A DNA stretch of 64,000 nucleotides from Eubacteriales bacterium (GTDB lineage Bacteria; Bacillota; Clostridia; Oscillospirales; CAG-272), in assembly GCA_045132775.1 (NCBI GenBank), contig JBGUSX010000143.1:2565-66564 (forward strand), written 5' to 3'. How positions within the stretch are numbered: the first letter of the stretch is position 1; every line of letters begins with the position of its first letter. The position numbers were made by a program, and so were the translations under genes. Of the stretch, positions 1,956-64,000 are shown one piece after another. The notes under the pieces were generated by a model. The model was not told where the DNA came from, ran no database searches, and saw only the letters and a program-made list of their open reading frames with translations.

Positions 1956-3812
1956 ATGAACGAAAAGCTTAATTCAATTTTAAAACAAGTTTCAAAGCCC
2001 GGGCGCTATTCGGGCGGTGAATACGGACAGATCATCAAGGACAAATCAAAAGTTAAAGCTCGCTTTGCGTTCGCTTTTCCTGATACCTACGAGATCGGAA
2101 TGTCCAATCTGGGTGTAAGGATACTCTATGAGTGCCTCAACCGTGAGGATGATATATGGTGTGAGCGTGTATATGACCCGTGGGTCGATATGCAGGAGAA
2201 GATGAAGGAAAATAATCTTCTTCTTTGGGCGCACGAAAGTAAGGACAATGTCAAGGACTTTGATTTTCTTGGCTTCACCTTACAATATGAGATGTCATAT
2301 ACCAACGTGCTTAATATGCTTGAGCTTTCAGGCATACCACTCCGCTCGAGCGAGCGCGAAGAGGAATTCCCCATCGTTGTAGGTGGCGGTCCATGTGCAT
2401 ACAATCCCGAGCCTGTTGCGGATTTCTTTGATATCTTCAACATAGGCGAGGGAGAAAGCCTGCTTGTTGAAATAGTACGCTTGTATATCACAATGAAGGA
2501 CGAAGGCAGATATACAAAAGCAGAATTTCTTCACGAAGCCGCAAGAACAATACCCGGCGTATACGTTCCCTCGCTCTATAACGTTGAATACAATGAGGAC
2601 GGAACGATCAAGGCGTATATTCCCGTGTATGATGATATTCCGACAAAGATCACAAAGCGAATCGTTGAGGATCTTGACAAGGCAATTTTCCCCGATTATG
2701 CGATAATGCCTTATACAGAGGTAGTTCATGACAGGATAATGCTTGAGGTCTTCCGTGGATGTATCAGAGGTTGCAGGTTCTGTCAGGCGGGAATGATCTA
2801 TCGCCCTGTAAGAGAAAAGTCTCCAGACGTGCTTAACGAGCAAGCCAAATGTATATTTGAGAACACGGGATACGAAGAAATATCGCTTTCTTCTCTTTCC
2901 ATAAGTGACTACACAGGACTTCGCGAGCTTACTGATAAGCTGCTTGAGTGGACGAAGGACAATATGGTAAGCTTCTCTCTTCCCTCATTGCGTGTTGACA
3001 GCTTCACAAAGGAGCTTATGGAAAAGGTTGCATCGGTAAGAGCTTCTTCGCTCACATTCGCTCCAGAGGCGGGATCGCAGAGACTCCGTGACGTTATAAA
3101 TAAAAACGTCAGAGAGGACGATCTTATGAGGGCGGTCAACGTGGCGTTTGATGCAGGTAAGACACAGGTCAAGCTCTACTTTATGCAGGGACTTCCCACT
3201 GAGACTGAAGACGATCTTGCGGCGATTCCAAAGCTTGCCAAGGATGTTATTGAAGCATTCTACGCAAATCCCAACAGAAACCGTGCAAAACAGCCGCAGG
3301 TGACGTTCAGCGTTTCGCCGTTTATCCCCAAGCCCTTTACCCCGTTCCAGTGGGAGCCTCAGGATTCTCTTGAAACGATCAAATCAAAGCAGGAGTTTAT
3401 CGGAAAGCTCGTTACCGACAGAAAGATCAAGTATCAGCATCACGATGCGGAGATATGCCGTATTGAAGCCGTGCTGGCGCGCGGTGACAGAAAGCTTTGC
3501 AACGCTCTTGAGCTTGCCTGCCGAGAAGGCTTCAAATTTGATGCCTGGAGCGAGTATTTTGACTATGATAAATGGATCTCGGTTTTTGAGAAAAGCGGTG
3601 TTGATCCCGAATTTTACGCTAATAGACGCTATTCCTTCGACGAGGTTCTCCCTTGGGATATTATCGACTGTGGAGTTGATAAGAGCTTCCTTTTGAGAGA
3701 ATGCAAAAAGGCGTACGAGGATCAGACAACGCCCAGCTGTCGCGAGCATTGCTCGGGATGCGGCGCAAATAAGCTTGGAGGTGAAAGAACGTGTTGTCCG
3801 AAAAGAAAATAA
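1956..3812 (+). CDS. B12-binding-domain radical SAM protein (TIGR03960-like, function unknown)
   Basis: 618 aa. It has a radical-SAM cysteine triad CIRGCRFCQAG, a Cys-rich C-terminus, and the typical partnership with the next gene. Confidence 0.85.
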   Translation: MNEKLNSILKQVSKPGRYSGGEYGQIIKDKSKVKARFAFAFPDTYEIGMSNLGVRILYECLNREDDIWCERVYDPWVDMQEKMKENNLLLWAHESKDNVKDFDFLGFTLQYEMSYTNVLNMLELSGIPLRSSEREEEFPIVVGGGPCAYNPEPVADFFDIFNIGEGESLLVEIVRLYITMKDEGRYTKAEFLHEAARTIPGVYVPSLYNVEYNEDGTIKAYIPVYDDIPTKITKRIVEDLDKAIFPDYAIMPYTEVVHDRIMLEVFRGCIRGCRFCQAGMIYRPVREKSPDVLNEQAKCIFENTGYEEISLSSLSISDYTGLRELTDKLLEWTKDNMVSFSLPSLRVDSFTKELMEKVASVRASSLTFAPEAGSQRLRDVINKNVREDDLMRAVNVAFDAGKTQVKLYFMQGLPTETEDDLAAIPKLAKDVIEAFYANPNRNRAKQPQVTFSVSPFIPKPFTPFQWEPQDSLETIKSKQEFIGKLVTDRKIKYQHHDAEICRIEAVLARGDRKLCNALELACREGFKFDAWSEYFDYDKWISVFEKSGVDPEFYANRRYSFDEVLPWDIIDCGVDKSFLLRECKKAYEDQTTPSCREHCSGCGANKLGGERTCCPKRK

Positions 3813-4519
3813 CCCCCGGTGAAAAAAAACTGTCACTTCCGATGCTTGAAACACCGATAACGGTCAGAATAAAATTCTGCAAGATAGGAAATCTTCAGTT
3901 CGTCTCACACCTTGACCTCCAGAGAACCTTCCACAGAGTTCTGGTCCGTGCCAATATTCCAATGTGGTACACAAAAGGCTTTAATCCTCACGCAAAGCTT
4001 GTTTTCGGACTTCCCTTGTCAGTCGGAACAGAGAGCATGTGCGAAATGGCCGACCTCAAGATAGAAAGGAAGATCTCGCTTGATGATATCAAGTCACAGC
4101 TCAATGAGCAGCTTACGGATGAGATGTACGTTCTTGATGCCTATTACCCGACTACCAGATTTGCTGATATTGCGTACGCCGACTATTTGATCACTCTCAA
4201 AGCTGACGGAATAGACGAAAACACAGCACTCAAGGCCACAAGCCTTTTCGTCAATCCGGTCATGATGATGAAAAAATCAAAATCCGGCGAAAAAGAAGTT
4301 GATATAACAAATTTTATCAAAAAAATCGAGTTTGAATCCGCGAGCGGTTGTCTCAAGGTTAAAGCAGTGCTCTCCGCGGGAAGCAGCGAAAATCTCAACC
4401 CCGAATACATAGTTACCGCGTTGCGCGCGTTTGACGTAATGAAAAACGATCTTGAAGGCGTCGCATACAGAATTATGAGAAACAAGGTGTATGACGGCTA
4501 CATGATCGAATTCAAATAG
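3791..4519 (+). CDS. Radical-SAM-associated protein (TIGR03936/DUF2344-like)
   Basis: 242 aa with the motif ..VRIKFCKIGNLQFVSHLDLQRTFHRVL.. characteristic of the family. GTG start preceded by GGAGGTGA. It overlaps the upstream radical SAM gene by 22 nt. Confidence 0.8.
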   Translation: MLSEKKITPGEKKLSLPMLETPITVRIKFCKIGNLQFVSHLDLQRTFHRVLVRANIPMWYTKGFNPHAKLVFGLPLSVGTESMCEMADLKIERKISLDDIKSQLNEQLTDEMYVLDAYYPTTRFADIAYADYLITLKADGIDENTALKATSLFVNPVMMMKKSKSGEKEVDITNFIKKIEFESASGCLKVKAVLSAGSSENLNPEYIVTALRAFDVMKNDLEGVAYRIMRNKVYDGYMIEFK

Positions 4520-4570
4520 AAAGAAAAATAAAAATATATATGCGGAAAACCGCAGATGGAGGAAATGACA

Positions 4571-4993
4571 ATGGCAATCAAAATGAGAGTTCTCTGTTAT
4601 CCCGAGAACAACAAAAAGCTTCGCACCATCGCTGAGATGATCAAGGCAGAGTACGACCTTAATGTGAATTCTGTAGACAGGATTCCCCCCGCATATTCCT
4701 GCGATAAGGAAAGACTCCTTATCTTAGCAACACAGATCAAGGGTAATCTTCCTGATGATTATCGTCTGTTCGTACGCGAGCTTACCAAGGCAAGAGCAGC
4801 TAACGTTGCAATTATTGCCGCAGGCGACGAGGCTTGCGTTGCAAAGACAAAGGAACTGCTCCACGAGGCAGGAACCAACGTTCTTGAGGAGGTTAAGACC
4901 GTTAAGGTTGGACTCTTCAATACCAAGGTGACCGACGAGGAAAAGGCTGATATTCTTGCATGGGTAAAGGCTACTGTCGAAAAGCTCGCATAA
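4571..4993 (+). CDS. Hypothetical protein (flavodoxin-like fold suspected, no FMN-phosphate loop seen)
   Basis: ATG at 4571 lies 8 nt after GGAGG. The alternating beta/alpha pattern (RVLCY..LLILATQ..VAIIAAG) resembles flavodoxin, but the T/SxTGxT loop is absent. A strong terminator follows. Confidence 0.55.
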   Translation: MAIKMRVLCYPENNKKLRTIAEMIKAEYDLNVNSVDRIPPAYSCDKERLLILATQIKGNLPDDYRLFVRELTKARAANVAIIAAGDEACVAKTKELLHEAGTNVLEEVKTVKVGLFNTKVTDEEKADILAWVKATVEKLA

Positions 4994-5010
4994 TTATCCC
5001 ATTTATAATG

Positions 5011-5040
5011 AAAACCCGCCGATTGGCGGGTTTTATGTTT
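5011..5040. terminator. Bidirectional rho-independent terminator
   Basis: AAAACCCGCC-GATT-GGCGGGTTTT, with A/T runs on both sides, sits between convergent genes. Confidence 0.9.
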
Positions 5041-5057
5041 TAATACGTTATATTAAA

Positions 5058-5639
5058 TTAAACAATTTTGGGAGAAATGAATGAAGCAGTATCAGCAGAA
5101 TATGCATCATAGTTTTCCATTATGATTGCAACTACTTCTTCGGGAGTGCGCGATGTCGTATCAACAACTATATTGAAGTTATTGTAATCATAATAATCAA
5201 CGCCGTAAATATCAACAAATCTGTCACGTTCAACGCGGCTTCTTTCAACAAGCTTTTCGCAAGCCTCTTCAACAGTTTCGTAGTGCTCTTCGGCTCCGCG
5301 CTGATTGAGCATAACTCTTTTAGCGGCCTCCATAGCATCAATTGTGAGGAAGATTTTAAAAGTATTCTTTGCAAAGTGCCAAGCCATTCTAGAGTCAAAG
5401 ATAAGCTTATCATCCTTGCGTTCTTCGGAAAGTTTTGTTACGGTGCCGTCGATCTCGTGGTCGAGCGAAGGATCATCATTCAATCTTTTATTTAGCTCAA
5501 GTGTTGATATGCCGAGTCTTCGCGCATATTCACGATTGATTGTTCCGGTGCTGAATATTTCAAATCCGTATCTTTCCTTCATAATGTTGCAAACTGTAGA
5601 TTTTCCGCTTCCGAGTCTTCCAGTAATTGAAATTAACAT
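5058..5639 (-). CDS. Cytidylate-kinase-like / AAA-family nucleotide kinase
   Basis: 193 aa with N-terminal P-loop GRLGSGKST and overall (d)CMP-kinase-family-like layout. GGAGG RBS. Confidence 0.7.
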   Translation of the reverse strand: MLISITGRLGSGKSTVCNIMKERYGFEIFSTGTINREYARRLGISTLELNKRLNDDPSLDHEIDGTVTKLSEERKDDKLIFDSRMAWHFAKNTFKIFLTIDAMEAAKRVMLNQRGAEEHYETVEEACEKLVERSRVERDRFVDIYGVDYYDYNNFNIVVDTTSRTPEEVVAIIMENYDAYSADTASFISPKIV

Positions 5640-5754
5640 TTTTTCCTCCGTCGATATTTATTTATTGTTCTTTGATTTTTTGAATATAAATTAACCGACT
5701 TTCCCTCCGTACTGTACCGTACCAAATAGAGAAGTCGGTTAAATTACATCAATC

Positions 5755-6267
5755 TTATTCCAGGTTCAAAAGAATAATGGTGAACTCCGCTCCGTCGATT
5801 AAAAGGGTATCACTCATTTTTTTGTCGCTCTTATATTTGTTGATCTGTTCCAAACTAAGATTGATTGCCGACATTTCCTTAAGGCTGACACTGTTATCTT
5901 CTTCATTAACAACCACGTTTGTAACAAATCCAAAATAATTATCCTTATTATTTGCCTTCATACCTCCGATCTGAGTTATAGTATTGTTCTTGTCAATCTT
6001 GCAAGTGAAATCAGCTACTACGGAGAGGTAATTATTGACAACATTGAGGATTGTAGGCTCGGAATGACCCTTATAGGTATAATTGGTTTCTTCAAGTACT
6101 GTAATGCCGTCAGCGCCTTTAATCTGGAAAGAAACAGTAACTTTATACAATTCTCTTTCAGGGAGATCAATATCTTCATCCTCATCCTTATTGTCGCAAG
6201 CAACAAAAATGCACGAAAGTGCCGTAATTGCCATAATTGCAGCAAGAATTCTGATCAACTTCTTCAT
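5755..6267 (-). CDS. Putative lipoprotein (DUF4430-like)
   Basis: The signal peptide ends in the lipobox-like FVAC followed by DNKDEDED. The C-terminal pattern ..QIGGM..YFGFVTN..LIDGAEFTI.. resembles DUF4430. RBS GGAGGA. Confidence 0.65.
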   Translation of the reverse strand: MKKLIRILAAIMAITALSCIFVACDNKDEDEDIDLPERELYKVTVSFQIKGADGITVLEETNYTYKGHSEPTILNVVNNYLSVVADFTCKIDKNNTITQIGGMKANNKDNYFGFVTNVVVNEEDNSVSLKEMSAINLSLEQINKYKSDKKMSDTLLIDGAEFTIILLNLE

Positions 6268-54788: not shown

Positions 54789-56039
54789 ATGGCAAACGCA
54801 AGATACGAATCCGCAAAGGAAATATACGCAAGATACGGCATCGACACAGAAGCTGCTATAAAGGCTCTTTCTGACATCCGCATCTCTATGCACTGCTGGC
54901 AAGCAGATGACGTTCTCGGATTTGAGGGCACAGGAGCACTCTCCGGTGGTATTCAGACCACTGGTAACTACCCCGGACGCGCAAGAACTCCCGACGAGCT
55001 CTTCGCAGATCTCGACAAGGCACTTTCGCTCATCCCCGGAACGCATAAGATAAACGTTCATGCAAACTACGCAATTGCAGAGGACGGCGAGGTTATCGAC
55101 AGAGACATCATCGAGCCCCGTCACTTCAAGAGATGGGTAGAGTTTGCAAAGAAGCATAACTGCGGACTTGATTTCAACCCCACCTTCTTCTCTCACCCCA
55201 AGGCAGACGGACTTACACTCTCAAGCCCCAACGATGAGATCAGAAGCTTCTGGATCAAGCACGGTATCGCTTGCGTTAAGATCTCTGAATACTTCGCAAA
55301 CGAGACAGGCTATCCCTGCGTTATGAATATCTGGACAGGCGACGGTATGAAGGATATCCCCGGAGACAGACTCGGTCCGCGTCAGAGATACGCTGACTCT
55401 ATAGATAAGATCCTCGCTTGCGGATACGACAAGAGTAAGGTATACGTAACCGTTGAGTCCAAGGTCTTCGGTATCGGTGTTGAGGCTTATACCGTTGGTA
55501 GCGCGGAGTTCTCTCTCGCTTACGCTATGACAAGAGGAATCACACCTCTTATGGATAACGGTCACTATCATCCCACCGAGGTAGTTTCCGATAAGATCCC
55601 CGCGCTCCTCGTATTCTCCGACAAGATCGCGCTCCACATCACCCGTCCTATCCGTTGGGACTCCGACCACGTCGTAGCTTACGACGATGAGACCAGAGAG
55701 ATGATGAAGGAGGTAGTTCGTTGCAATGCTCTTGACAGAGTGTTCCTCGCAACAGACTATTTTGACGCTTCCATCAACCGCGTAGCCGCACTCGTTATCG
55801 GTATGAGAAACGTTCAGAAGGCTCTTCTCAATGCCCTTCTTACTCCCAACGAGGAGATCAAGAAGTATCAGGATGAGGGCAACTATACCATGATGCTCGC
55901 AATGCAGGAGGAGATCAAAACACTTCCTATGGGCGACGTTTGGATGGAATTCTGCGAGAGAAACGGCGTTGCAGGCTGCTCTTGCTGGCTCAAGGAGATC
56001 GAAAAGTACGAAAAGGAAGTTCTCGCAAAGAGAGTCTGA
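54789..56039 (+). CDS. rhaA: L-rhamnose isomerase
   Basis: The start is at MANARYESAKE after GGAGGA. ISMHCWQADDV near the N-terminus and a length of ~416 aa are typical of RhaA. Confidence 0.9.
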   Translation: MANARYESAKEIYARYGIDTEAAIKALSDIRISMHCWQADDVLGFEGTGALSGGIQTTGNYPGRARTPDELFADLDKALSLIPGTHKINVHANYAIAEDGEVIDRDIIEPRHFKRWVEFAKKHNCGLDFNPTFFSHPKADGLTLSSPNDEIRSFWIKHGIACVKISEYFANETGYPCVMNIWTGDGMKDIPGDRLGPRQRYADSIDKILACGYDKSKVYVTVESKVFGIGVEAYTVGSAEFSLAYAMTRGITPLMDNGHYHPTEVVSDKIPALLVFSDKIALHITRPIRWDSDHVVAYDDETREMMKEVVRCNALDRVFLATDYFDASINRVAALVIGMRNVQKALLNALLTPNEEIKKYQDEGNYTMMLAMQEEIKTLPMGDVWMEFCERNGVAGCSCWLKEIEKYEKEVLAKRV

Positions 56040-56071
56040 TCGTTTGATACATATCAGTCACATATTAAATC

Positions 56072-56100
56072 AAGGGAACGCTTCGGCGTTCCCTTTTTTC
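56072..56100 (+). terminator. Rho-independent terminator of rhaA
   Basis: AAGGGAACGC-TTCG-GCGTTCCCTT followed by TTTTTC. Confidence 0.9.
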
Positions 56101-56206
56101 TTTTAAAGAAAAACTTTATAACATTTCAGCAACAATTCTTCAACAAAACAAAAAAGTCGGTGTTGTAAAATACACTCACAATGGAAAAATATGAAAGCAG
56201 GAAAAT

Positions 56207-56581
56207 ATGGAAAACAACACTTTTAGCTATCAGTATTCAGCAGTCAGAAATAAGGAAGTCGAAAATATCAGAAAAAAGTATATCGTAAACGAGGAAAACA
56301 AGCTTGACAAGTTAAAAAAGCTCGATGCACGTGTTCAAATAGCAGGTGTGATAGAAAGCCTTTCTATCGGTATTATCGGTGCGCTCGTATTCGGCATCGG
56401 ACTTTGCTTTGGACTCGACGTGCTCACAGGAGCAGACTGGCTTACACTTCTCTTTGCTATCTTCGGGATTTGCTTGATGCTCCCCGCATACCCCATATAT
56501 AAGCATATATCGCGAAGGACACGCAATAGACTCGCCCCCGAGATCCTTCGCCTATCCGACGAGATAATGAAATCCTGTTAA
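56207..56581 (+). CDS. Small 2-TM membrane protein, uncharacterised family (copy A)
   Basis: 124 aa. It has the N-terminus MENNTFSYQYSAVRNKEVENIRKKY, LDKLKKLD, two hydrophobic helices, YPIYK and a basic/helical tail. Confidence 0.65.
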   Translation: MENNTFSYQYSAVRNKEVENIRKKYIVNEENKLDKLKKLDARVQIAGVIESLSIGIIGALVFGIGLCFGLDVLTGADWLTLLFAIFGICLMLPAYPIYKHISRRTRNRLAPEILRLSDEIMKSC

Positions 56582-56653
56582 AGCCGAGATAACAATTTAA
56601 TAAGACCACAACAATCAAACAAAAATACAACAATAATAGTGAGGTAAGAAATT

Positions 56654-57016
56654 ATGAACCAGAACGATCAGCTTAAAGCACAGAAGATTCGCGCACAGTA
56701 CATTGAAAAAGAGACCACCGATCTTGACACACTTCGAGATCTAGACAAAAAGGTAAGACACCCTGCAGCAGCTTTTTCTTACGTTTTTGGCAGTATTTCA
56801 GCAGTAATAATGGGTGCGGGAATGAGCCTTGTAATGACAGATATCGGTACCTTTCTCGGTCTGACCGACACTATGATCCCGGGCATCGCTATAGGCATCG
56901 TTGGAATGTTCTTGGCGCTTGTTAATTACCCCATCTATAAAGGCATCCTTAACAGCAGAAAAAAGAAATATGGTTCTAAAATACTTAATCTCTGTGATAA
57001 AATTAACGAAAAATAA
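56654..57016 (+). CDS. Small 2-TM membrane protein, paralog of the previous gene (copy B)
   Basis: 120 aa with the same layout: KIRAQYIEKE..LDTLRDLDKKV.., two TMs, NYPIYKGIL and ..ILNLCDKI. Confidence 0.65.
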   Translation: MNQNDQLKAQKIRAQYIEKETTDLDTLRDLDKKVRHPAAAFSYVFGSISAVIMGAGMSLVMTDIGTFLGLTDTMIPGIAIGIVGMFLALVNYPIYKGILNSRKKKYGSKILNLCDKINEK

Positions 57017-57034
57017 TAAAGAGGAGAACATAAA

Positions 57035-57400
57035 ATGGCAGAGAAGAAAAACAAAAAGCCGCTTATAATAGCGGGAATAGGTGCAGGAGTTACCGCGGCA
57101 GCAGTTGGACTCGTCGCAGCATTCAAGAGCATGAAAGAAAGCGCAAAAGCACAGCACGAGGTAGATAAAGCGGAATTTGCCGCTGTAAAAGCAGAAGCAA
57201 AAGCAAGTTTTGAAGAAAACAGAGGTCGTAATACATTCAAAAAGGCAAAAGCTGATGCAAAGAAGACCTGGGATGAGGCACACCTCTCTCCTTCCAAGAG
57301 ATCAGAAAAAATGCAGAAGGAACGCGATGCAAAAAAGGCAGCAGCTGAAGCCAGAACCAAATCCGCCCAAGCTCGCTACGAGGCAGTAAAGAAAAAATAA
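57035..57400 (+). CDS. N-terminally anchored K/A/E-rich coiled protein (YtxH-like)
   Basis: 121 aa. It has the TM segment PLIIAGIGAGVTAAAVGLVAAF, then charged helical low-complexity sequence. RBS AGAGGAG. Confidence 0.6.
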   Translation: MAEKKNKKPLIIAGIGAGVTAAAVGLVAAFKSMKESAKAQHEVDKAEFAAVKAEAKASFEENRGRNTFKKAKADAKKTWDEAHLSPSKRSEKMQKERDAKKAAAEARTKSAQARYEAVKKK

Positions 57401-57416
57401 GCAATAATACAACATA

Positions 57417-57441
57417 AGCGAGGCGCAGAATGCGGCTCGCT
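57417..57441 (+). terminator. Weak hairpin after the YtxH-like gene
   Basis: AGCGAG-G-CGCA-GAA-TGCG-G-CTCGCT with a poor U-tract. Read-through into the ABC genes is likely. Confidence 0.35.
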
Positions 57442-57478
57442 CGTGTTGCGTTATCTATAGACTAAAAAGGAGTAAAAA

Positions 57479-58393
57479 ATGAACGCAATCGAAATCAAAA
57501 ATCTTTCCAAAAGCTTTCGTTCGATGTACGCGGTAGATCATCTCAATATGACCGTGCCCCAGGGCGCGATCTACGGATTTATCGGCGAAAACGGAAGCGG
57601 AAAATCTACAACAATGAAGCTTATCTGCGGTCATCTTGTCCCAAATAGCGGAGAGATCAAGCTGTTTGGCAGAGATTACACAGACCCGGGTGTCCGCGTA
57701 AGAGTCGGCGCACTTATCGAAAATGCAGGATGCTTCCCCGGCTCCAGCGTCTATCAGAATCTTATGATGCAATGTATAAACCTCGGTATTGAAAACCCAG
57801 ACGACGAGATCCGCCGCGTGCTTGAGATCGTACGTATGGAGGACAACGCAAACATAAAATTCAAGAGCTGTTCTCTCGGTATGAAACAGCGTATCGGAAT
57901 TGCTATGGCACTTTTAGGTGACCCCACGCTCCTTATTCTTGACGAGCCGATCAACGGTCTCGACACCGACGGAATGAGAATAATGAGAGAAATACTCGTT
58001 GATATCACAAAGAAATACGGCTGTACAGTTCTCATCTCCTCCCATATACTCGGCGAGCTTGAAAAGATCGCCACTCACTACGGTATCATCCGTCAGGGCA
58101 AAATGATCATGGAGCTCTCTGCTGAAGAAATGGACAACAGAGCCCAGGTATTCGTATCTCTCAAAACGAAGGATATGGAAGGTGCAAGATCACTTCTTGA
58201 GAAGGAATACGCAACCGTAAAAGAGGAAGACGAGTACATCCGCGTCTATGACGTAGACGACACCAAATCTATCGTGGAATATCTCATGGAGAACGGCCAC
58301 GTGGTAAGTGAGATCAAGAAGAACAAGATCGGTCTCGAAGAATATTACGTGGAGCTTATGAGCGCACAGGATACAGAAAAGGAGGTAAAGTAA
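57479..58393 (+). CDS. ABC transporter ATP-binding protein, BcrA/LanF-like (pair 1)
   Basis: Walker A is GENGSGKST, the atypical signature is CSLGMKQRIGIA, Walker B is LLILDEP and the H-loop is SSHIL. It has a ~90-aa C-terminal extra domain. Confidence 0.9.
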   Translation: MNAIEIKNLSKSFRSMYAVDHLNMTVPQGAIYGFIGENGSGKSTTMKLICGHLVPNSGEIKLFGRDYTDPGVRVRVGALIENAGCFPGSSVYQNLMMQCINLGIENPDDEIRRVLEIVRMEDNANIKFKSCSLGMKQRIGIAMALLGDPTLLILDEPINGLDTDGMRIMREILVDITKKYGCTVLISSHILGELEKIATHYGIIRQGKMIMELSAEEMDNRAQVFVSLKTKDMEGARSLLEKEYATVKEEDEYIRVYDVDDTKSIVEYLMENGHVVSEIKKNKIGLEEYYVELMSAQDTEKEVK

Positions 58394-58394
58394 T

Positions 58395-59231
58395 ATGGCA
58401 CACGAGATAACCTTTGAATCACCGAGCTTTCAGAAAAGAATAAAAGGAATGCTCGGAGTAGACTTTTATCGCCTCTTCCACACTCCCCTCTTTTACATAT
58501 TCCTTGCGATCGCGGCAATAATTCCCGCAATGGTATCCGCAATGACAATGATGCCCGATCAAAGCGGCAACACCATGGAGCCACTCTATTCAAACGTATG
58601 GCAGATCATAGCTGCTGAAGAATCCCTATACGTAATTCGCACAATCGCCGACTATGCAAATATGAACATGGTATTCATTTTTGGCGGTATAATGGTGTCG
58701 ATATTCATCGGACACGACTATAAGTCCGGCTACGTAAAGCAGCTCTTCACCACCCACGCAAAAAAGCAGGACTATATGATCTCCAAGAGCATCGTGTGTG
58801 CCTTTGCAATGGCATGCATGTGTCTGACTTATCTTATAGGCGGAACAGTCGCCGGAATACTCGTTGGCTATGATACTACAGTAAACATTGGCTCCTTGAT
58901 CATTGCAATTCTCGGCAAAATGATAATGTCACTCGGTTGGGCAAGCCTTTATACCTTCCTCAATATTATCTTCAGAAAATACTTTGGAATATCCATCGCA
59001 TCGTCCTTCTTCTTTGGCACGGGAATTCTTATCATAGGTGTTGCTGCAATAGTTGAAAATCTCGCAATTCCCACCGAATTCCTCAACATCTTCCTCTACG
59101 GAGCGTCGGTCAACGCGTGCCTTGCAAGTGATATCACAGCGCTCATCACCTGTGTCTCGGTTTCTCTCTCCTGGGCAGTGATCTACAATGTAGCGGGAAC
59201 CCACATCCTCAACAAGTGCGACGTATATTAA
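58395..59231 (+). CDS. ABC-2-type permease (pair 1)
   Basis: 278 aa with about 6 TMs. The ATG is 1 nt after the ATPase stop. Confidence 0.75.
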   Translation: MAHEITFESPSFQKRIKGMLGVDFYRLFHTPLFYIFLAIAAIIPAMVSAMTMMPDQSGNTMEPLYSNVWQIIAAEESLYVIRTIADYANMNMVFIFGGIMVSIFIGHDYKSGYVKQLFTTHAKKQDYMISKSIVCAFAMACMCLTYLIGGTVAGILVGYDTTVNIGSLIIAILGKMIMSLGWASLYTFLNIIFRKYFGISIASSFFFGTGILIIGVAAIVENLAIPTEFLNIFLYGASVNACLASDITALITCVSVSLSWAVIYNVAGTHILNKCDVY

Positions 59232-59290
59232 AAGAGGTCAGGCGCGAAATGAAATTATCTGTTATTATGAATTTGGGCTATTCGAGTCCT

Positions 59291-59313
59291 CTCTTTGCGA
59301 TCGACGCAAAGAG
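59291..59313 (+). other. Perfect 9-bp hairpin in the spacer between the two ABC pairs
   Basis: CTCTTTGCG-ATCGA-CGCAAAGAG with no U-tract. It lies at the 3' end of a possible 22-codon sORF (59249-59317). Confidence 0.6.
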
Positions 59314-59337
59314 CTGAAAGAAATAGGAGAATAAATT

Positions 59338-60237
59338 ATGAATGCAGTTGAAATAAAAAACTTATCAAAGAATTTCGGTGCCAAGCAGGCGGTTTGCGGT
59401 CTTGAAATGACTGTACCTATGGGCTCGATCTACGGCTTTATCGGTGAAAACGGCTCGGGCAAATCGACCACTGAAAAAATGATCTGCGGTCTTATCCCAA
59501 CAAGCGGCGGCTCAATAAAGCTCTACGGAAAGGACTATACCGATGCTGATGTCCGTGCAAAGATCGGAGTGCTCATAGAGTCTCCCGGATGCTTCCCGGG
59601 ACTCACAGTTTTCGATAATATGATGCTCCAGGCGGCAAACCTCTCGATAAAGAACGCCGAAGAAGAGGTCATAAAGACCCTGAAGCTTGTAAGAATGGAA
59701 GGCGCGGCAGGCAATAAATATAAAAATTGCTCGCTCGGCATGAAGCAACGAGTCGGCATAGCAATGGCACTTCTCGGAGACCCTACCCTCCTCGTCCTCG
59801 ACGAGCCCCTCAACGGACTCGACGCAGACGGAATGAGAATAATGCGTGAGGTCTTTACCGACATCGTAAAAGACGGTAAACGCAGTATCATCGTTTCCTC
59901 TCACCTTCTCGGCGAGCTCCAGAAGGTAGCAACTCACTACGGAATTATCCGTCACGGAAAGATGATCGTGGAAATGACTGCAGAAGAGCTTGACGCAAGC
60001 TGCAGAACCTACGTGGCTCTCCGTACCGACGAAATGAACAGGACAAAAATGCTCCTCGGATGCAAATACTCACGCGTCGAGGAGGACGAAGCGGAATACA
60101 TCCGCGTTTACGACATAACAACTCCCGAGGAGATAGTAACGTATCTCTACGAGAACGGAATATGCGTAACAGAGATCAAAACGGACAAGATCGGTCTCGA
60201 AGAATACTATATCGATCTTATGAAAGGAGGCAGATAA
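59338..60237 (+). CDS. ABC transporter ATP-binding protein, BcrA/LanF-like (pair 2, paralog of 57479-58393)
   Basis: It is collinear with pair 1 and roughly 60% identical by eye: MNAVEIKNLSKNF.., GENGSGKST, CSLGMKQRVGIA, LLVLDEP, ..KIGLEEYYIDLM. Confidence 0.9.
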   Translation: MNAVEIKNLSKNFGAKQAVCGLEMTVPMGSIYGFIGENGSGKSTTEKMICGLIPTSGGSIKLYGKDYTDADVRAKIGVLIESPGCFPGLTVFDNMMLQAANLSIKNAEEEVIKTLKLVRMEGAAGNKYKNCSLGMKQRVGIAMALLGDPTLLVLDEPLNGLDADGMRIMREVFTDIVKDGKRSIIVSSHLLGELQKVATHYGIIRHGKMIVEMTAEELDASCRTYVALRTDEMNRTKMLLGCKYSRVEEDEAEYIRVYDITTPEEIVTYLYENGICVTEIKTDKIGLEEYYIDLMKGGR

Positions 60238-60239
60238 GA

Positions 60240-61103
60240 ATGGATAACGCAGTAAGATTTGAAAAAACACATATTTCGCAAAGAATAAAAAGTATGCTTA
60301 AAGTCGATCTTCGCAGGATGATCAAATCAAGGCTTTTCTATATTCTAATAGCCTGCTCCCTTCTCATTCCGATAGTAATGACCGTAATGCTCTGTATGAT
60401 GGACGGACAGGTCTCAGTTGACCCCCAAACAGGCAAAGAGACGGTTATGGAAGGACCCGAGAGCGTCTGGCAGTCGATAGGCACACTTCCAACAACAAGC
60501 GTGCCCGAGGTCGATATGAGCAACCCCGACGCAATGGGCGGCATGGCGGCAATGGGCGCAGGAATGGACGTCATGGCAATGTGCAACATAAATATGATGT
60601 TTATGGGCGTTGCAGTTTTTATCTGCCTCTTCATTTCCGAGGATTTTAGAAGCGGATACGCAAAAAATCTCTTCACAGTACGCGCAAGGAAAGGCGACTA
60701 TGTTATCTCTAAAACCCTCTCGGGCTTCGTTTGCGGTGCAATAATGCTGATTATGTATTTTATTGGCGCACTGCTTGCAGGAGCGATCTCGGGCTTGCCA
60801 TTCGATATGGTGGGCGATATGACAGTCGCAAGCGTTGTAATGTGCATGATCGCAAAGATCTTCCTTATGCTCGTTTTCGTTCCGATCTTCGTTTGCATCA
60901 GTGTAGCGGCAAAACAGAAGGCATGGCTTGCACTCTGCGGATCGCTTGGCGCGGGAATGCTGCTCTTTATGATGGTTGGAATGATCACACCCCTCAATTC
61001 AACCTTGATCCACGTTATTCTCACGCTTGCAGGCGGTGCAATGTTCTCTTTCGGACTGGGTGCCATCAGTAAACATATTCTCAAAAAAACAGGCTTAGTA
61101 TAA
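60240..61103 (+). CDS. ABC-2-type permease (pair 2, paralog of 58395-59231)
   Basis: The start is at MDNAVRFEKTHISQRIKSMLKVDLRR, which parallels ITFESPSFQKRIKGMLGVDFYR in pair 1. About 6 TMs. The longer 60060 ORF is an out-of-frame overlap with the ATPase. Confidence 0.75.
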   Translation: MDNAVRFEKTHISQRIKSMLKVDLRRMIKSRLFYILIACSLLIPIVMTVMLCMMDGQVSVDPQTGKETVMEGPESVWQSIGTLPTTSVPEVDMSNPDAMGGMAAMGAGMDVMAMCNINMMFMGVAVFICLFISEDFRSGYAKNLFTVRARKGDYVISKTLSGFVCGAIMLIMYFIGALLAGAISGLPFDMVGDMTVASVVMCMIAKIFLMLVFVPIFVCISVAAKQKAWLALCGSLGAGMLLFMMVGMITPLNSTLIHVILTLAGGAMFSFGLGAISKHILKKTGLV

Positions 61104-61109
61104 AACTCA

Positions 61110-61137
61110 AGGCAACGCATAAGCGTTGCCTTTTTCA
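61110..61137 (+). terminator. Rho-independent terminator after ABC pair 2
   Basis: AAGGCAACGC-ATAA-GCGTTGCCTT followed by TTTTC. Confidence 0.9.
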
Positions 61138-61196
61138 ATAAAATAAGAGGAATTTTAAAAAAAATCAAAAATACAAACAAAACTTTAACAATTACG

Positions 61197-61205
61197 TGAT
61201 ATAAT
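61197..61205 (+). promoter_or_regulatory. Extended -10 promoter element P1 upstream of the response regulator
   Basis: TGATATAAT, part of the 11-mer TGATATAATAT. Confidence 0.45.
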
Positions 61206-61285
61206 ATGCAATGTGAAGCTGAACTGAGCACAACACCAATTTATTGCAATAGCTGCTCGCAAGCGAGCAGTCCGAGTCATATTTA

Positions 61286-61294
61286 TGATATAAT
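61286..61294 (+). promoter_or_regulatory. Extended -10 promoter element P2 upstream of the response regulator
   Basis: A second copy of TGATATAATAT lies 89 nt downstream of P1 and 42 nt before the ATG. Confidence 0.5.
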
Positions 61295-61335
61295 ATACCC
61301 GTAAAAGCCAAAATCCGCCCATGGAGGATGAAAAC

Positions 61336-62007
61336 ATGTTTAAGATCTTGATCGTAGAGGATGACAGAGACCTCAACCGCAGTGTCTGCTCTTTCCTTAA
61401 TAATTCGGGATACGAGGCAGTAGGTTGCCTCGATGCAGAAAGCGCATACGATGAAATGTATAAAACCACCTTTGACTGTATCGTATCCGATATAATGATG
61501 CCCAATATCGACGGCTTTGAATTTGCGAAAACAGTGCGCTCACTCAATACTGACATTCCGATCTTGTTTATGACCGCGCGTGACGATTTTGCTGCAAAGC
61601 AAAGAGGCTACCGCATAGGCATCGACGACTATATGATAAAGCCCATAGACCTTGACGAGCTGTTTCTGCGTATAGGGGCCCTTCTCCGTCGATCAAAGAT
61701 AGCATCAAGCCGCAGACTTGAGGTGGGCAGCTTTGTTATGGATGCCGATGAACGCTCCGCAACACTCAATGATGTGGAAATATCACTCACGGCAAGAGAG
61801 TTCGACCTTCTCTATAAGCTGCTCTCTTACCCCAAAAAGACCTTCACACGCACACAGCTTATGGACGAATTCTGGGACGTTGACACACAAACGAGCACAA
61901 GAACAGTTGACGTGTATATGACCAAGCTCCGCGCCAAGCTCGCGGATTGCGACTCATTTGAGATACAGACCGTCCACGGACTCGGATATAAGGCGGTAAT
62001 AAAATGA
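61336..62007 (+). CDS. OmpR-family response regulator
   Basis: The start is at MFKILIVEDD, 7 nt after GGAGGA. It has the receiver Asp context CIVSDIMMP and a winged-helix C-terminus (RTVDVYMTKLRAKL). Confidence 0.9.
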   Translation: MFKILIVEDDRDLNRSVCSFLNNSGYEAVGCLDAESAYDEMYKTTFDCIVSDIMMPNIDGFEFAKTVRSLNTDIPILFMTARDDFAAKQRGYRIGIDDYMIKPIDLDELFLRIGALLRRSKIASSRRLEVGSFVMDADERSATLNDVEISLTAREFDLLYKLLSYPKKTFTRTQLMDEFWDVDTQTSTRTVDVYMTKLRAKLADCDSFEIQTVHGLGYKAVIK

Positions 62008-63095
62008 AAAAAATAACCTTCAAAGCCCTACTTCGCGAATTCAGTGCATTCCTTCTCTTTTTTCTGACGGTTGGATTTGTCGTTTCGTGTTGTATGATGC
62101 TGTTTCTGAACGTGCTGTCAGACACAATGGGACTCGAATTCACGCCCGAAAACATATCCGCGGCGGCAAAGATCACCTTTGTCAACGTCCTTATCATCAC
62201 AGTGATTTTCAGAACGATAGATTTTATCCGTCGTAAAATAATGGTCGACAGACCCGTCAAAATGATCACCAAGGCCGCAGAGAAGATAATGAACGGAGAC
62301 TTTTCCGTGCGCGTAAAGGAAATGAACGGCGCAGGTATGGAGGGAATGAATCAGGTCGGTCAAGCGATCAACTCTATGGCAGAAGAGCTCTCAAGCGTTG
62401 AGATGTTGCGCACCGACTTTATCGCAAATGTCTCGCATGAAATGAAAACACCTCTTGCAGTAATGCGAAATTACGGAACACTATTGCAATCACCCGATCT
62501 TTCGGAAGAAAAACGGATCGAATACGCAAGAGCCATCACAGATTCATCTCGCCGCCTGGCAGATATGATGACGAATATACTAAAGCTCAACCGACTCGAA
62601 AATCAACAGATATTCCCCACCGTCACCACATTTGACCTCGGCGAACAGCTTTGCGAGTGCCTTTTGCAGTATGAAAGCACCTGGGAGAAAAAGAATATCG
62701 ATATCGAGACAGAAATTGCAGAAAACGTACTTGTAAGAGCTGATGCAGAGCTTTTGTCGCTGGTCTGGAATAATCTTTTCTCAAACGCGTTTAAATTCAC
62801 GGATGAGGGAGGTAAGGTGAGCCTTGTGCTTTTCGCTGATGAGGAGTACGCATCCGTAAAAATAACCGATACGGGATGCGGAATGAGCGCGGAAGTCGGC
62901 GCACATATATTTGAAAAATTCTATCAGGGCGATACCTCGCACGCAACACAGGGTAATGGACTCGGACTCGCGCTAGTCAAAAGAGTGGTTGATATCATGC
63001 AAGGCGAGATCGGAGTTGAGAGCGAGGTAGGTGTCGGAACGACCTTTACGGTTAAGATCAGGAGGGATAAAAATGGATTGGAAGAAAATCGGTAA
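62004..63095 (+). CDS. Sensor histidine kinase, intramembrane-sensing type (two TMs, ~20-aa outer loop)
   Basis: It has an ATGA overlap with the regulator gene. There is a HAMP-like linker, and the H-box SHEMKTPL, N-box NLFSNAFKF, G1 DTGCGM and G2 GNGLGLALV are present. Confidence 0.9.
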   Translation: MKKITFKALLREFSAFLLFFLTVGFVVSCCMMLFLNVLSDTMGLEFTPENISAAAKITFVNVLIITVIFRTIDFIRRKIMVDRPVKMITKAAEKIMNGDFSVRVKEMNGAGMEGMNQVGQAINSMAEELSSVEMLRTDFIANVSHEMKTPLAVMRNYGTLLQSPDLSEEKRIEYARAITDSSRRLADMMTNILKLNRLENQQIFPTVTTFDLGEQLCECLLQYESTWEKKNIDIETEIAENVLVRADAELLSLVWNNLFSNAFKFTDEGGKVSLVLFADEEYASVKITDTGCGMSAEVGAHIFEKFYQGDTSHATQGNGLGLALVKRVVDIMQGEIGVESEVGVGTTFTVKIRRDKNGLEENR

Positions 63096-63963
63096 AGCAC
63101 TTCTCTTTCCGCATATTGCGATAATGATTATACTCATCCCGATAGCAACGGCTTTACTTGTATGCTCAATGGTTTTAGTTGGAACAGAGTCGCCGATAGC
63201 TTATGTTTCCTACGTTTTAGCCGCATATACGTTGACAATATGGTGCTTTAAAATACCGAATATCATTAAGTTTTTCAAGACGTTCAAAGAAGAAAACAAG
63301 TACGCAAAAATGCTTCAAGAAGATGCCAGACTCCGCGTAAACCTTTCACTTTACGGCTCACTCGCCTGGAATGCCCTGTACGGAGTATTCCAGCTCTGGC
63401 TCGGATACTACCACAGTACCTTCTGGTTCTATTCTCTCGGCGCATATTACATCTGCCTTGGAGTGATGCGTTTCGTTCTGCTTTTGCATACCAGAAAATA
63501 CCAGCCGGGCGAGAAAATGCAGACCGAGCTTAAAAAATACCGCGCATGCGGTTGGGTATTCCTCGCTATGAACCTGGCATTGGCGCTGATAGTATTCTTT
63601 ATGGTTTATTGGAACAGGACCTTCGTTCACCATATGATAACCGCAATAACTATGGCTGCATACACGTTTACCTCATTCACCGTAGCCATCGTGAATATTG
63701 TGAGATACAGAAAATACAATAGCCCGGTCTTTTCCGCTTCAAAGGCTATCAGCTTTGCCTCAGCTCTTGTATCAATGCTAACGCTTGAATCAACGATGCT
63801 CACAGCATTCAGTGACGGAACAATGTCGGCAGTTGAACAGAAATGGATGCTCGGAGCAACGGGAGGCGGTATTGTCGCAATCATTCTTGCAATGGCAATA
63901 TACATGATAATCTCGGGCACTAAAAAAATCAAAGCAATAAAGGCAGAGGAAAATAATGGATAA
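63073..63963 (+). CDS. Uncharacterised polytopic (~8 TM) membrane protein, translationally coupled to the kinase
   Basis: The start is at MDWKKIGK after AGGAGGG, overlapping the kinase 3' end by 23 nt. I recognise no motif. Confidence 0.65.
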   Translation: MDWKKIGKALLFPHIAIMIILIPIATALLVCSMVLVGTESPIAYVSYVLAAYTLTIWCFKIPNIIKFFKTFKEENKYAKMLQEDARLRVNLSLYGSLAWNALYGVFQLWLGYYHSTFWFYSLGAYYICLGVMRFVLLLHTRKYQPGEKMQTELKKYRACGWVFLAMNLALALIVFFMVYWNRTFVHHMITAITMAAYTFTSFTVAIVNIVRYRKYNSPVFSASKAISFASALVSMLTLESTMLTAFSDGTMSAVEQKWMLGATGGGIVAIILAMAIYMIISGTKKIKAIKAEENNG

Positions 63964-64000
63964 TAATCAGGAAAAAAACGGATTTTCATACACCTATTCC
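63956..64000 (+). CDS. 5' end of a third copy of the small 2-TM protein family (truncated by the window end)
   Basis: There is an ATGGATAA overlap with the preceding stop. The visible 15 aa MDNNQEKNGFSYTYS match MENNTFSYQYS at the start of copy A. Confidence 0.4.
   Translation, partial: MDNNQEKNGFSYTYS

Follow-up and report, generated by a model that had tools for sequence, protein, structure and literature searches.

We analysed a 64,000-nt stretch of DNA (the window) from Eubacteriales bacterium (GTDB CAG-272; assembly GCA_045132775.1, contig JBGUSX010000143.1) and focused on a gene cluster at positions 56207-64000. Eleven genes on the + strand make up the cluster, in the order sA, sB, coil, ATPase1, permease1, ATPase2, permease2, RR, HK, TM8 and sC. 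They encode two small paralogous proteins with two transmembrane (TM) segments each, a membrane-anchored coil protein, two ATPases and two permeases of the ATP-binding cassette (ABC) type, a response regulator (RR), a histidine kinase (HK), a protein with eight TM segments and a third small paralog. In our view the cluster probably represents a variant, so far undescribed, of the modules with which Gram-positive bacteria defend their envelope or resist antimicrobial peptides. We give about an even chance to the more specific reading, drawn from sequence, that it constitutes a self-contained, self-regulated regulon of gut Clostridia for defence against membrane stress or antimicrobial compounds. 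The overall logic of a two-component system, an ABC detoxification module and accessory membrane proteins is already well known.

A preliminary description of the cluster had set a gene-neighbourhood check beforehand as its refutation test, and we carried out this check in two scans. The first scan covered one genome per species, was seeded with a profile of the small 2-TM family and yielded 78 loci, in which six-frame open reading frames (ORFs) were labelled by the window proteins. The second scan covered metagenome contigs and was seeded with a narrower TM8 alignment, independently of the first. The genes found directly upstream of sC in the first scan included TM8 in 46, HK in 47 and RR in 46 of the 48 sC genes with enough upstream sequence. 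In the second scan, HK lay directly upstream of TM8 in 51 of 57 cases, and a small paralog lay directly downstream in 71 of 73. The order was also conserved in locus L082, where TM8 is only 49% identical to that of the window. Because the order was conserved in both scans, we conclude that the linkage of the small family and TM8 to the two-component and ABC genes is real, and it is strongly conserved.

The hosts found in the first scan were all metagenome-assembled genomes (MAGs) of Clostridia, Oscillospiraceae, Ruminococcus or Lachnospiraceae from ruminant and human guts. The commonest architectures were sB-RR-HK-TM8-sC (22 loci), RR-HK-TM8-sC (9 loci) and the longer arrangement sB-ATP-P1-ATP-P2-RR-HK-TM8-sC (5 loci), where ATP stands for an ATPase gene and P1 and P2 for the permease genes. 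The ABC block either follows sB/coil and precedes RR, which is its place in the window, or forms a separate group, sA(-sB-coil)-ATP-P1-ATP-P2. Because RR-HK-TM8-sC was intact in the 22 + 9 loci that carry no ABC genes between sB and RR, we conclude that the two-component system with TM8 and sC needs no adjacent transporter.

The genes of the cluster also share a promoter element. In related loci, the regions upstream of RR have in common GCAAACAAAACTTTAACATTT-N5-TGnTATAAT (51 instances). The element itself can be written as (T/A)AACA-N6-(T/A/C)AACA, which is a direct repeat with an 11-nt period whose proximal half-site lies 9 nt from the -10 box, with no -35 box. The distance from the proximal half-site to the TAnnnT box was exactly 9 nt in 45 of 54 RR promoters. 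The sA and sB promoters of other loci contain these half-sites in longer arrays, TTTATAACATTTCAGAAACAAATCGCCAACAAAAC...TAtAAT for sA and ATTAACAAAACGCAAACATTTCACAAAA.AATCAAAAACA-N9-TATAAT for sB. Across these other loci, the element was present upstream of sA in 14/19 cases, of sB in 33/49 and of RR in 43/54, with a background of 0.017 per 210 nt, and it was found upstream of none of 40 ATPase genes and none of 59 sC genes. When both strands of the 64-kb window were scanned for WAACA-N6-HAACA, we found three sites (56119, 56617 and 61175), compared with 1.05 expected from shuffles. All three were on the + strand, no more than 150 nt upstream of sA, sB and RR. Locus L082, which was not used in defining the pattern, had two sites only, both at predicted promoters. 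A 21-nt position weight matrix (PWM) built from RR promoters matched the RR site alone within the window, and the shared feature is the pair of half-sites rather than the whole 21-mer. Regulators of the OmpR/PhoB family classically bind to direct repeats that are spaced by a helical turn and stand in for the -35 box. Because the repeats found here match this mode, the simplest inference from the sequence is that RR binds them and autoregulates.

The regulator and the kinase are readily recognized. RR matched the Pfam domains Response_reg (E 3.7e-25) and Trans_reg_C, a winged helix (E 4.8e-22). HK has hydropathy peaks at residues 17-35 and 51-75, and these are followed by HAMP, HisKA and HATPase_c domains. 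The loop between the peaks is SDTMGLEFTPENISAAAK, about 18 aa, close to the roughly 20-aa external loop that the preliminary description had assigned to the kinase. In the definition of Mascher, intramembrane-sensing kinases have two TM helices, a linker of less than 25 aa and no external domain. As predicted from its sequence, HK is such a kinase, with two TM helices and a short linker, and since it has no external domain, sensing must be within the membrane. Kinases of this kind have known accessory proteins, which include YycHI, LiaF, SaePQ and BceB.

In the window, the genes next to the kinase are closely coupled to it, with overlaps of 4 nt between RR and HK, 23 nt between HK and TM8, and 8 nt between TM8 and sC. 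The 8-TM protein is thus part of the two-component operon, as first described, and the model of TM8 discussed below contains eight long helices. We also found natural in-frame fusions of TM8 to sC among the family representatives (P0350, 429 aa; P0273, 353 aa). Such a fusion is topologically consistent, with the C-terminus of TM8 and the N-terminus of sC both predicted to be cytoplasmic, and the fusions argue for physical association of the two proteins. A further representative, P0374, resembles a kinase N-terminus joined to TM8 and is possibly an assembly or frameshift artefact.

TM8 belongs to a large family of 5745 clusters at 90% identity, with 3063 representatives at 50% identity, of which 505 had E<=1e-30. 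No Pfam family covers it, and a sequence-profile search of the PDB revealed no relative, its best match being an iron-sulfur protein (E 0.065). Among 60 diverse relatives, only W118, Y125 and R133 were invariant, and a cytoplasmic RYRKYxSPVxSAxK loop was highly conserved. A first AlphaFold model of TM8, based on 30 close homologs, reached a predicted local distance difference test score (pLDDT) of 54. A second model, based on 131 more diverse sequences, reached a pLDDT of 66.9 and a predicted TM-score (pTM) of 0.62, and shows one short amphipathic helix in addition to the long ones, with the last six helices the most confident. A sizeable subgroup of the family (for example P0300, P0306, P0309 and P0311) is about 225-235 aa in length and lacks the first two helices, its match beginning at query residue ~64-80. 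Because of these ~230-aa relatives, we take the conserved core of TM8 to be the last six helices.

An alternative that we considered makes TM8 and sC effectors, for instance a pair of proteins for immunity or transport whose genes share a transcript with the two-component system, and lets the kinase sense through flux of the ABC transporter or alone. A Foldseek search of the PDB with the TM8 model returned membrane domains of cation diffusion facilitators (CDFs) as all of its top 33 matches (TM-score 0.4-0.5, best E 4.6e-3), although none had E<=1e-3. Similarly, 2 of the 60 TM8 relatives weakly matched PF01545, and the TM8 of the window did not. The hallmarks of a CDF are a DxxxD/HxxxD metal site and a cytoplasmic C-terminal domain. 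TM8 has no Asp/His pairs in the corresponding helices and no soluble domain; because these are absent we rejected CDF membership, and the resemblance is a fold-level lead at most. Effectors of this type have a precedent, in that the immunity genes LanI and LanH adjoin lanFEG and lanRK in known systems (PMC10793476). Against the proposal, TM8 and the permeases are not related (hhalign probability <1%), which also led us to reject TM8 as a degenerate ABC-2 permease, and the RR-HK-TM8-sC unit is kept in the loci described above that lack ABC genes in the sB-RR interval. We therefore consider an effector role for TM8 and sC to be unlikely.

A bolder reading of the two-component operon, that HK joins with TM8 and sC in a tripartite intramembrane sensor of a kind not recognised before, is a tentative one, possible rather than probable. 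In such a sensor TM8 and sC would gate the kinase, and sA and sB would either feed back on it, as MgrB does, or couple it to the double ABC exporter in a form of flux sensing.

sA, sB and sC are genuine paralogs of one another, with 32% identity between sA and sB (E 6e-14) and 38% between sC and sA (E 3e-24), in agreement with the earlier claim that one small 2-TM family recurs on both sides of the locus, including in the two-component operon. All three contain a pair of hydrophobic stretches, and judging by how the charges are distributed, both long termini are cytoplasmic. The invariant features of the family are an N-terminal IRxxY...LxxLD helix, glycines in the first TM segment and a YPIY motif behind the second. 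The family numbers at least 7997 clusters at 90% identity, none of which carries a Pfam domain or a name. Profile hidden Markov model (HMM) searches, which had been proposed as a check, found no usable family for sA, sB, sC, coil or TM8 in Pfam, NCBIfam or PADLOC, and matches of the small, coil and TM8 proteins to TerC, SecD, RadB and DUF456 (E ~0.01-0.06) were rejected as noise. The best E value of the small-family profile against PDB sequences was 0.5, which identifies no relative, and a cluster look-up of the window proteins gave neither names nor accessions. In addition, PspA/LiaH, LiaF (DUF2154) and PspC domains had no Pfam or NCBIfam match in these five proteins. The coil protein had been called YtxH-like, a label we do not retain: it matched no Pfam family at E<=0.01 and no HMM in Pfam or NCBIfam. 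Its gene occupies an equivalent position in many related loci. sA and sB may be accessory subunits of the transporter or feedback modulators of a complex of TM8, sC and the kinase.

The transporter had been described as exactly duplicated. We found that ATPase1 and ATPase2 are 60% identical and that permease1 and permease2 are 26% identical (hhalign probability 99.9%, homologous), and from these sequences the duplication is an ancient one, exact in architecture only. Both ATPases retain the Walker B Glu and the H-loop His and, because of this, look catalytically competent. The SLGMKQR signature noted earlier is present in both and in 38/38 orthologs, and the LIE motif is present in 36/38. In ATPase1, Glu81 of this motif takes the place of the Gln in the Q-loop when the protein is aligned to the solved structures of ABCA3 and ABCA4. 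A Glu at the Q-loop position (the "E-loop") is described as among the most conserved features of LanFEG transporters and as essential for immunity (bioRxiv 10.1101/2025.10.09.681468). The best NCBIfam family of both ATPases was TIGR03740, the ATP-binding subunit of lantibiotic protection ABC transporters, followed by DrrA, GldA and PmtC/PmtA. The C-terminal extensions, about 75 aa each, can be aligned to the models of DrrA and PmtC as well as to the PmtCD structure. The permeases gave weak matches to Pfam ABC2_membrane_4, _2 and _3 near the gathering score, and no Pfam match to an FtsX domain was found in ten cluster proteins. Permease1 is unusually conserved across MAGs of different genera (71-87% identity, 85% mean column identity; alignment A7). 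Permease2 is much less so (58-79% identity), an asymmetry that recalls the functional asymmetry proposed for NisE/NisG.

The resemblance to BcrAB, LanFEG and CprABC that the preliminary description had emphasized therefore stands in part. It is upheld by the best family match, the E-loop, the ABC-2 permeases and the adjacent RR and HK, and it does not extend to the family scores, which are below cut-off, to the gene order, which is Pmt-like, or to the permeases, which remain unmatched. On sequence, we regard the transporter as related to LanFEG/Cpr and as probably working in a similar manner, a candidate rather than an established member.

Comparison with known systems places the cluster near several of them. 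Cpr-type operons consist of one ATPase, two different 6-TM ABC-2 permeases, an RR and an HK, with no biosynthetic genes (PMC5786555), and gut Bacillota commonly carry lanFEG(I)RK loci, which confer resistance to lantibiotics and antimicrobial peptides (PMC10793476). Like CprABC-CprRK of C. difficile, LanFEG and lanFEG(I)RK, the window has two different 6-TM ABC-2 permeases, the E-loop, an SLGMKQR-type signature, an OmpR-type RR and an HK adjacent to and downstream of the transporter, no biosynthetic genes, and a gut Firmicutes host. In contrast to LanF2EG, with its one F gene, the window has a pair of ATPase genes that alternate with the permease genes. Further differences from these systems are the C-terminal extensions of the ATPases, TIGR03740 scores below cut-off, permeases that match no curated LanE/G model, and the absence of a LanI lipoprotein, and sA, sB, coil, TM8 and sC have no counterparts in the described systems.

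The kinase invites a different comparison. WalRK-YycHI, LiaFSR, SaePQRS and MgrB-PhoQ are systems in which accessory membrane proteins control a kinase, and small-protein control has been described for SaeS (PMC12239555). As in these systems, accessory membrane-protein genes in the window are co-operonic with, and translationally coupled to, a kinase without a sensing domain, and the operon appears to be autoregulated; the induction of small membrane-protein genes by the regulator would follow the logic of liaI and mgrB. Unlike these systems, the cluster has no match to LiaF/DUF2154, PspA, YycH/I or SaeQ, and the proposed partners of the kinase are a protein with eight TM segments and a 2-TM hairpin whose cytoplasmic helices are conserved. 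BceRS-BceAB likewise pairs an intramembrane-sensing kinase with an ABC transporter, there in defence against peptide antibiotics, but a permease of the FtsX type with its large external domain is missing from the window, where the kinase has a HAMP domain and the transporter is of the ABC-2 type. MadRS/MadEFG/MadLM of E. faecalis, TCS01-BceAB of S. pneumoniae and DraRS of C. difficile were judged to be different systems. A full-text word search of the literature, which cannot exclude such a paper, found none on this gene set.

With these comparisons, the following mechanism can be proposed. HK would sense inside the membrane, where it would form a sensory complex with TM8 and sC, to which it is translationally coupled, and the signal would be a perturbation of the membrane by peptides or other amphiphiles. 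Phosphorylated RR would then bind head-to-tail (T/A)AACA half-sites in place of a -35 box, with one dimer site at its own operon and two at the effector promoters. In this genome the predicted effectors are sA, sB, coil and a hetero-tetrameric type-V (ABC-2) exporter composed of two E-loop ATPases and two divergent 6-TM permeases. Like LanFEG/CprABC and Pmt, the exporter would clear the bilayer of a membrane-active compound. sA and sB would be induced paralogs of sC, the constitutive partner, and would serve as transporter subunits or feedback modulators. In other genomes, the response would add a cardiolipin synthase and a protein of 11-mer repeats.

These two additions lie next to the conserved genes in related loci. 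A cardiolipin synthase gene is located just upstream of sA or of the ABC genes in 15 loci (for example L010:4122-5687, L049, L056, L057 and L059). Its product has two PLDc_2 domains and PLDc_N, and scores 331 bits for TIGR04265, above the cut-off of 290. The element, as TAACA-N6-AAACA, precedes 6/15 of these ORFs. A soluble protein with two to four VVEGYKKIExG 11-mer repeats, about 75 aa long (70-85), is encoded directly upstream of sB or sA in 19 loci (for example L076:6229-6465, L020:6594-6827 and L082:6514-6771). It has a conserved C-terminal ...KEGESVEDAKKRLSG and no Pfam or NCBIfam family, and the element was found upstream of its gene in 8 of the 18 cases checked. To us, its 11-mer periodicity is reminiscent of lipid-binding amphipathic helices. 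Because the element precedes the cardiolipin synthase and repeat-protein genes elsewhere, we suggest that membrane remodelling is part of the response. Neither gene is present in the 64-kb window.

These observations can also be explained by a role in membrane-lipid homeostasis. In this explanation, the kinase complex senses the state of the bilayer (composition, curvature or fluidity), the transporter moves lipids, and remodelling of the membrane falls to the cardiolipin synthase and the amphipathic repeat protein; peptides are not the natural signal. A kinase without an external domain would suit such a role, as would cardiolipin synthase genes upstream of the cluster genes, some with the element, and a frequent repeat-protein neighbour, yet both of these genes are missing from the window. 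The closest solved relatives of the ATPases are the lipid transporters ABCA3, ABCA4 and ABCA1 (E 4e-44 to 2e-38). This similarity, however, is limited to the generic ATPase domain, whereas the E-loop of the ATPases and their best-scoring family both speak for transporters of lantibiotic immunity. Lipid homeostasis as the primary function seems to us unlikely.

Another explanation is suggested by PmtABCD, the staphylococcal exporter of phenol-soluble modulins (PSMs), namely that the cluster exports an endogenous membrane-active peptide and protects its host from it, with the small genes being part of production. The window has the pmtABCD gene order, ATPase-permease-ATPase-permease, which recurs in related loci, and it shares with Pmt the ABC-2 fold and ATPases of about 290-300 aa with a C-terminal domain. 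The PmtC and PmtA models are among the ATPase matches (E 1.7e-38 and 1.1e-31) and the PmtCD structure 6xjh aligns over residues 6-288, but the scores of 132.7 and 110.2 bits are far under the equivalog cut-offs of 375 and 350. PmtABCD is regulated by PmtR, a GntR-type repressor, whereas the cluster would be regulated by its two-component system and has no PmtR-like repressor. Moreover, there are no biosynthetic, precursor or PSM-like genes in the cluster or its flanks, and the small proteins are 2-TM proteins of 120-136 aa rather than secreted peptides. Taken together, these differences make self-export of this kind highly unlikely. Chance juxtaposition, with small ORFs functionally untied to the two-component system and transporter, is hardly credible, as nothing speaks for it beyond the weak promoter in the sA-sB spacer of the window and it is refuted by an order kept in >100 loci from two independently seeded scans, by the TM8-sC fusions, by the shared promoter element and by thousands of family members.

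Several points weigh against the reading of the cluster as a self-regulated defence regulon with a sensor complex. Peptide resistance is something that we infer, and the link to cardiolipin synthase would fit a broader role in membrane stress or lipid remodelling equally well. TM8 and sC can equally be read as effectors co-expressed with the kinase, and the confidence of the TM8 model is only moderate (pLDDT 66.9). For the transporter, TIGR03740 gave 210.3 and 195.2 bits where its cut-off is 309.75, and neither permease had an NCBIfam match at E<=0.01, including to LanE/LanG-type models. The promoter element was defined on related loci and then tried on the window and L082, which makes this evidence only partly independent. 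The sB promoter of the window is itself degenerate; because no clear -10 box follows its half-sites, sB may be read through from the sA promoter. Finally, each scan covered the 80 closest relatives, at >=35% identity, and the conserved order applies to these.

The positions of the features are given in Table 1. The preliminary description had counted eleven co-directional genes with short or overlapping junctions, and all eleven ORFs are indeed on the + strand, with only 1-2 nt between ATPase and permease in both pairs. The full sC (136 aa; L001:4520-4930) was obtained from metagenome contig L001, which is 100% identical to the window over 1001 nt. Because a divergent AraC/PocR gene comes next in L001, we conclude that sC is the last gene of the cluster. 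The gap between permease2 and RR is 217 nt and contains both a terminator-like hairpin and the RR promoter. Because of this hairpin with its T-run and the long spacer, there are at least two transcription units, sA(-sB-coil-ABC1-ABC2) and RR-HK-TM8-sC.

Table 1. Genes, predicted promoters and terminator of the cluster (positions in the window)
Feature	Positions	Strand	Description
P_sA, predicted promoter	56119-56171	+	four in-phase half-sites (TAACA, CAACA, CAACA, AAAAG), 11-nt period, 9-nt spacer, -10 box TAAAAT, no -35 box
sA, small 2-TM hairpin protein	56207-56581	+	124 aa; both termini predicted cytoplasmic
P_sB, degenerate	56617-56632	+	one pair AAACA-N6-CAACA in the sA-sB spacer; no clear -10 box
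sB, paralog of sA	56654-57016	+	120 aa, 2 TM
coil, N-terminally anchored protein	57035-57400	+	121 aa; Lys/Ala/Glu-rich, predicted helical
ATPase1, ABC	57479-58393	+	304 aa; E-loop LIE (Glu81), SLGMKQR signature, C-terminal extension ~75 aa
permease1, ABC-2 type	58395-59231	+	278 aa, ~6 TM
ATPase2, ABC	59338-60237	+	299 aa; E-loop and signature as in ATPase1
permease2, ABC-2 type	60240-61103	+	287 aa, ~6 TM; start matches the gene called in L001
terminator-like hairpin	61109-61132	+	G+C-rich, then TTTTTC; end of the ABC transcription unit
P_RR, predicted promoter	61175-61205	+	AAACA-N6-TAACA, 9-nt spacer, extended -10 box TGATATAAT; PWM score 32.3/36
RR, OmpR/PhoB family	61321-62007	+	alternative start 61336 gives the 223-aa product called in L001
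HK, predicted intramembrane-sensing	62004-63095	+	2 TM, ~18-aa loop, HAMP, HisKA, HATPase_c
TM8, 8-TM protein	63073-63963	+	296 aa; translationally coupled to HK and sC
sC, third small 2-TM paralog	63956-64000 (window edge)	+	first 15 codons in the window; starts by ATGGATAA overlap

The surroundings of the cluster are ordinary. A strong terminator at 56072-56095 ends the upstream rhamnose isomerase gene (RhaA), and the upstream flank also holds genes for an SDR protein, a LigT-like protein and an asparaginase, while AraC/PocR and GFO_IDH genes lie downstream. As first described, genes for lantibiotic biosynthesis, an FtsX permease or UppP are absent from the cluster and from these flanks, which consist of housekeeping genes. 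An Rfam search of 55800-64000 found no RNA element. The spacer between permease1 and ATPase2 contains an inverted repeat with 22-nt arms (59278-59326), and the spacer between coil and ATPase1 contains a shorter G+C-rich hairpin (57417-57441). Neither is followed by a T-run or matches Rfam, and both may be processing, stability or attenuation signals in the effector transcript. Downstream of P_RR, the RR leader (61215-61300) contains a hairpin, GCTGCTCGC-AAG-GCGAGCAG, and a second TGATATAAT-like box at ~61283-61297, which could be a second, constitutive promoter of the two-component operon. In L082, an ABC ATPase and a 614-aa permease with an FtsX domain are encoded divergently to sB-RR-HK-TM8-sC (3542-6143, - strand) and share an intergenic region with one regulon element. 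The permease has no NCBIfam family, and its size and domain suggest that the pair is a BceAB-like transporter.

The Oscillospiraceae, Ruminococcaceae and Lachnospiraceae, which are difficult to study, belong to the dominant anaerobes of the gut, and the cluster bears on their perception and survival of bile, bacteriocins, host peptides and other membrane-active compounds. It defines a testable regulon with a predicted operator and three sizeable protein families outside the curated libraries, TM8, the small family and coil, and it would help microbiome surveys to annotate "LanFEG-like" resistance genes more precisely. Should TM8 and sC prove to be co-sensors of the kinase, they would provide a new answer to how intramembrane-sensing kinases perceive their signal. 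If, further, the tripartite sensor and the regulated cardiolipin synthase of other genomes both hold true, gut Clostridia would have in this cluster a new and widespread pathway for envelope stress, alongside Lia, Bce and Cpr.

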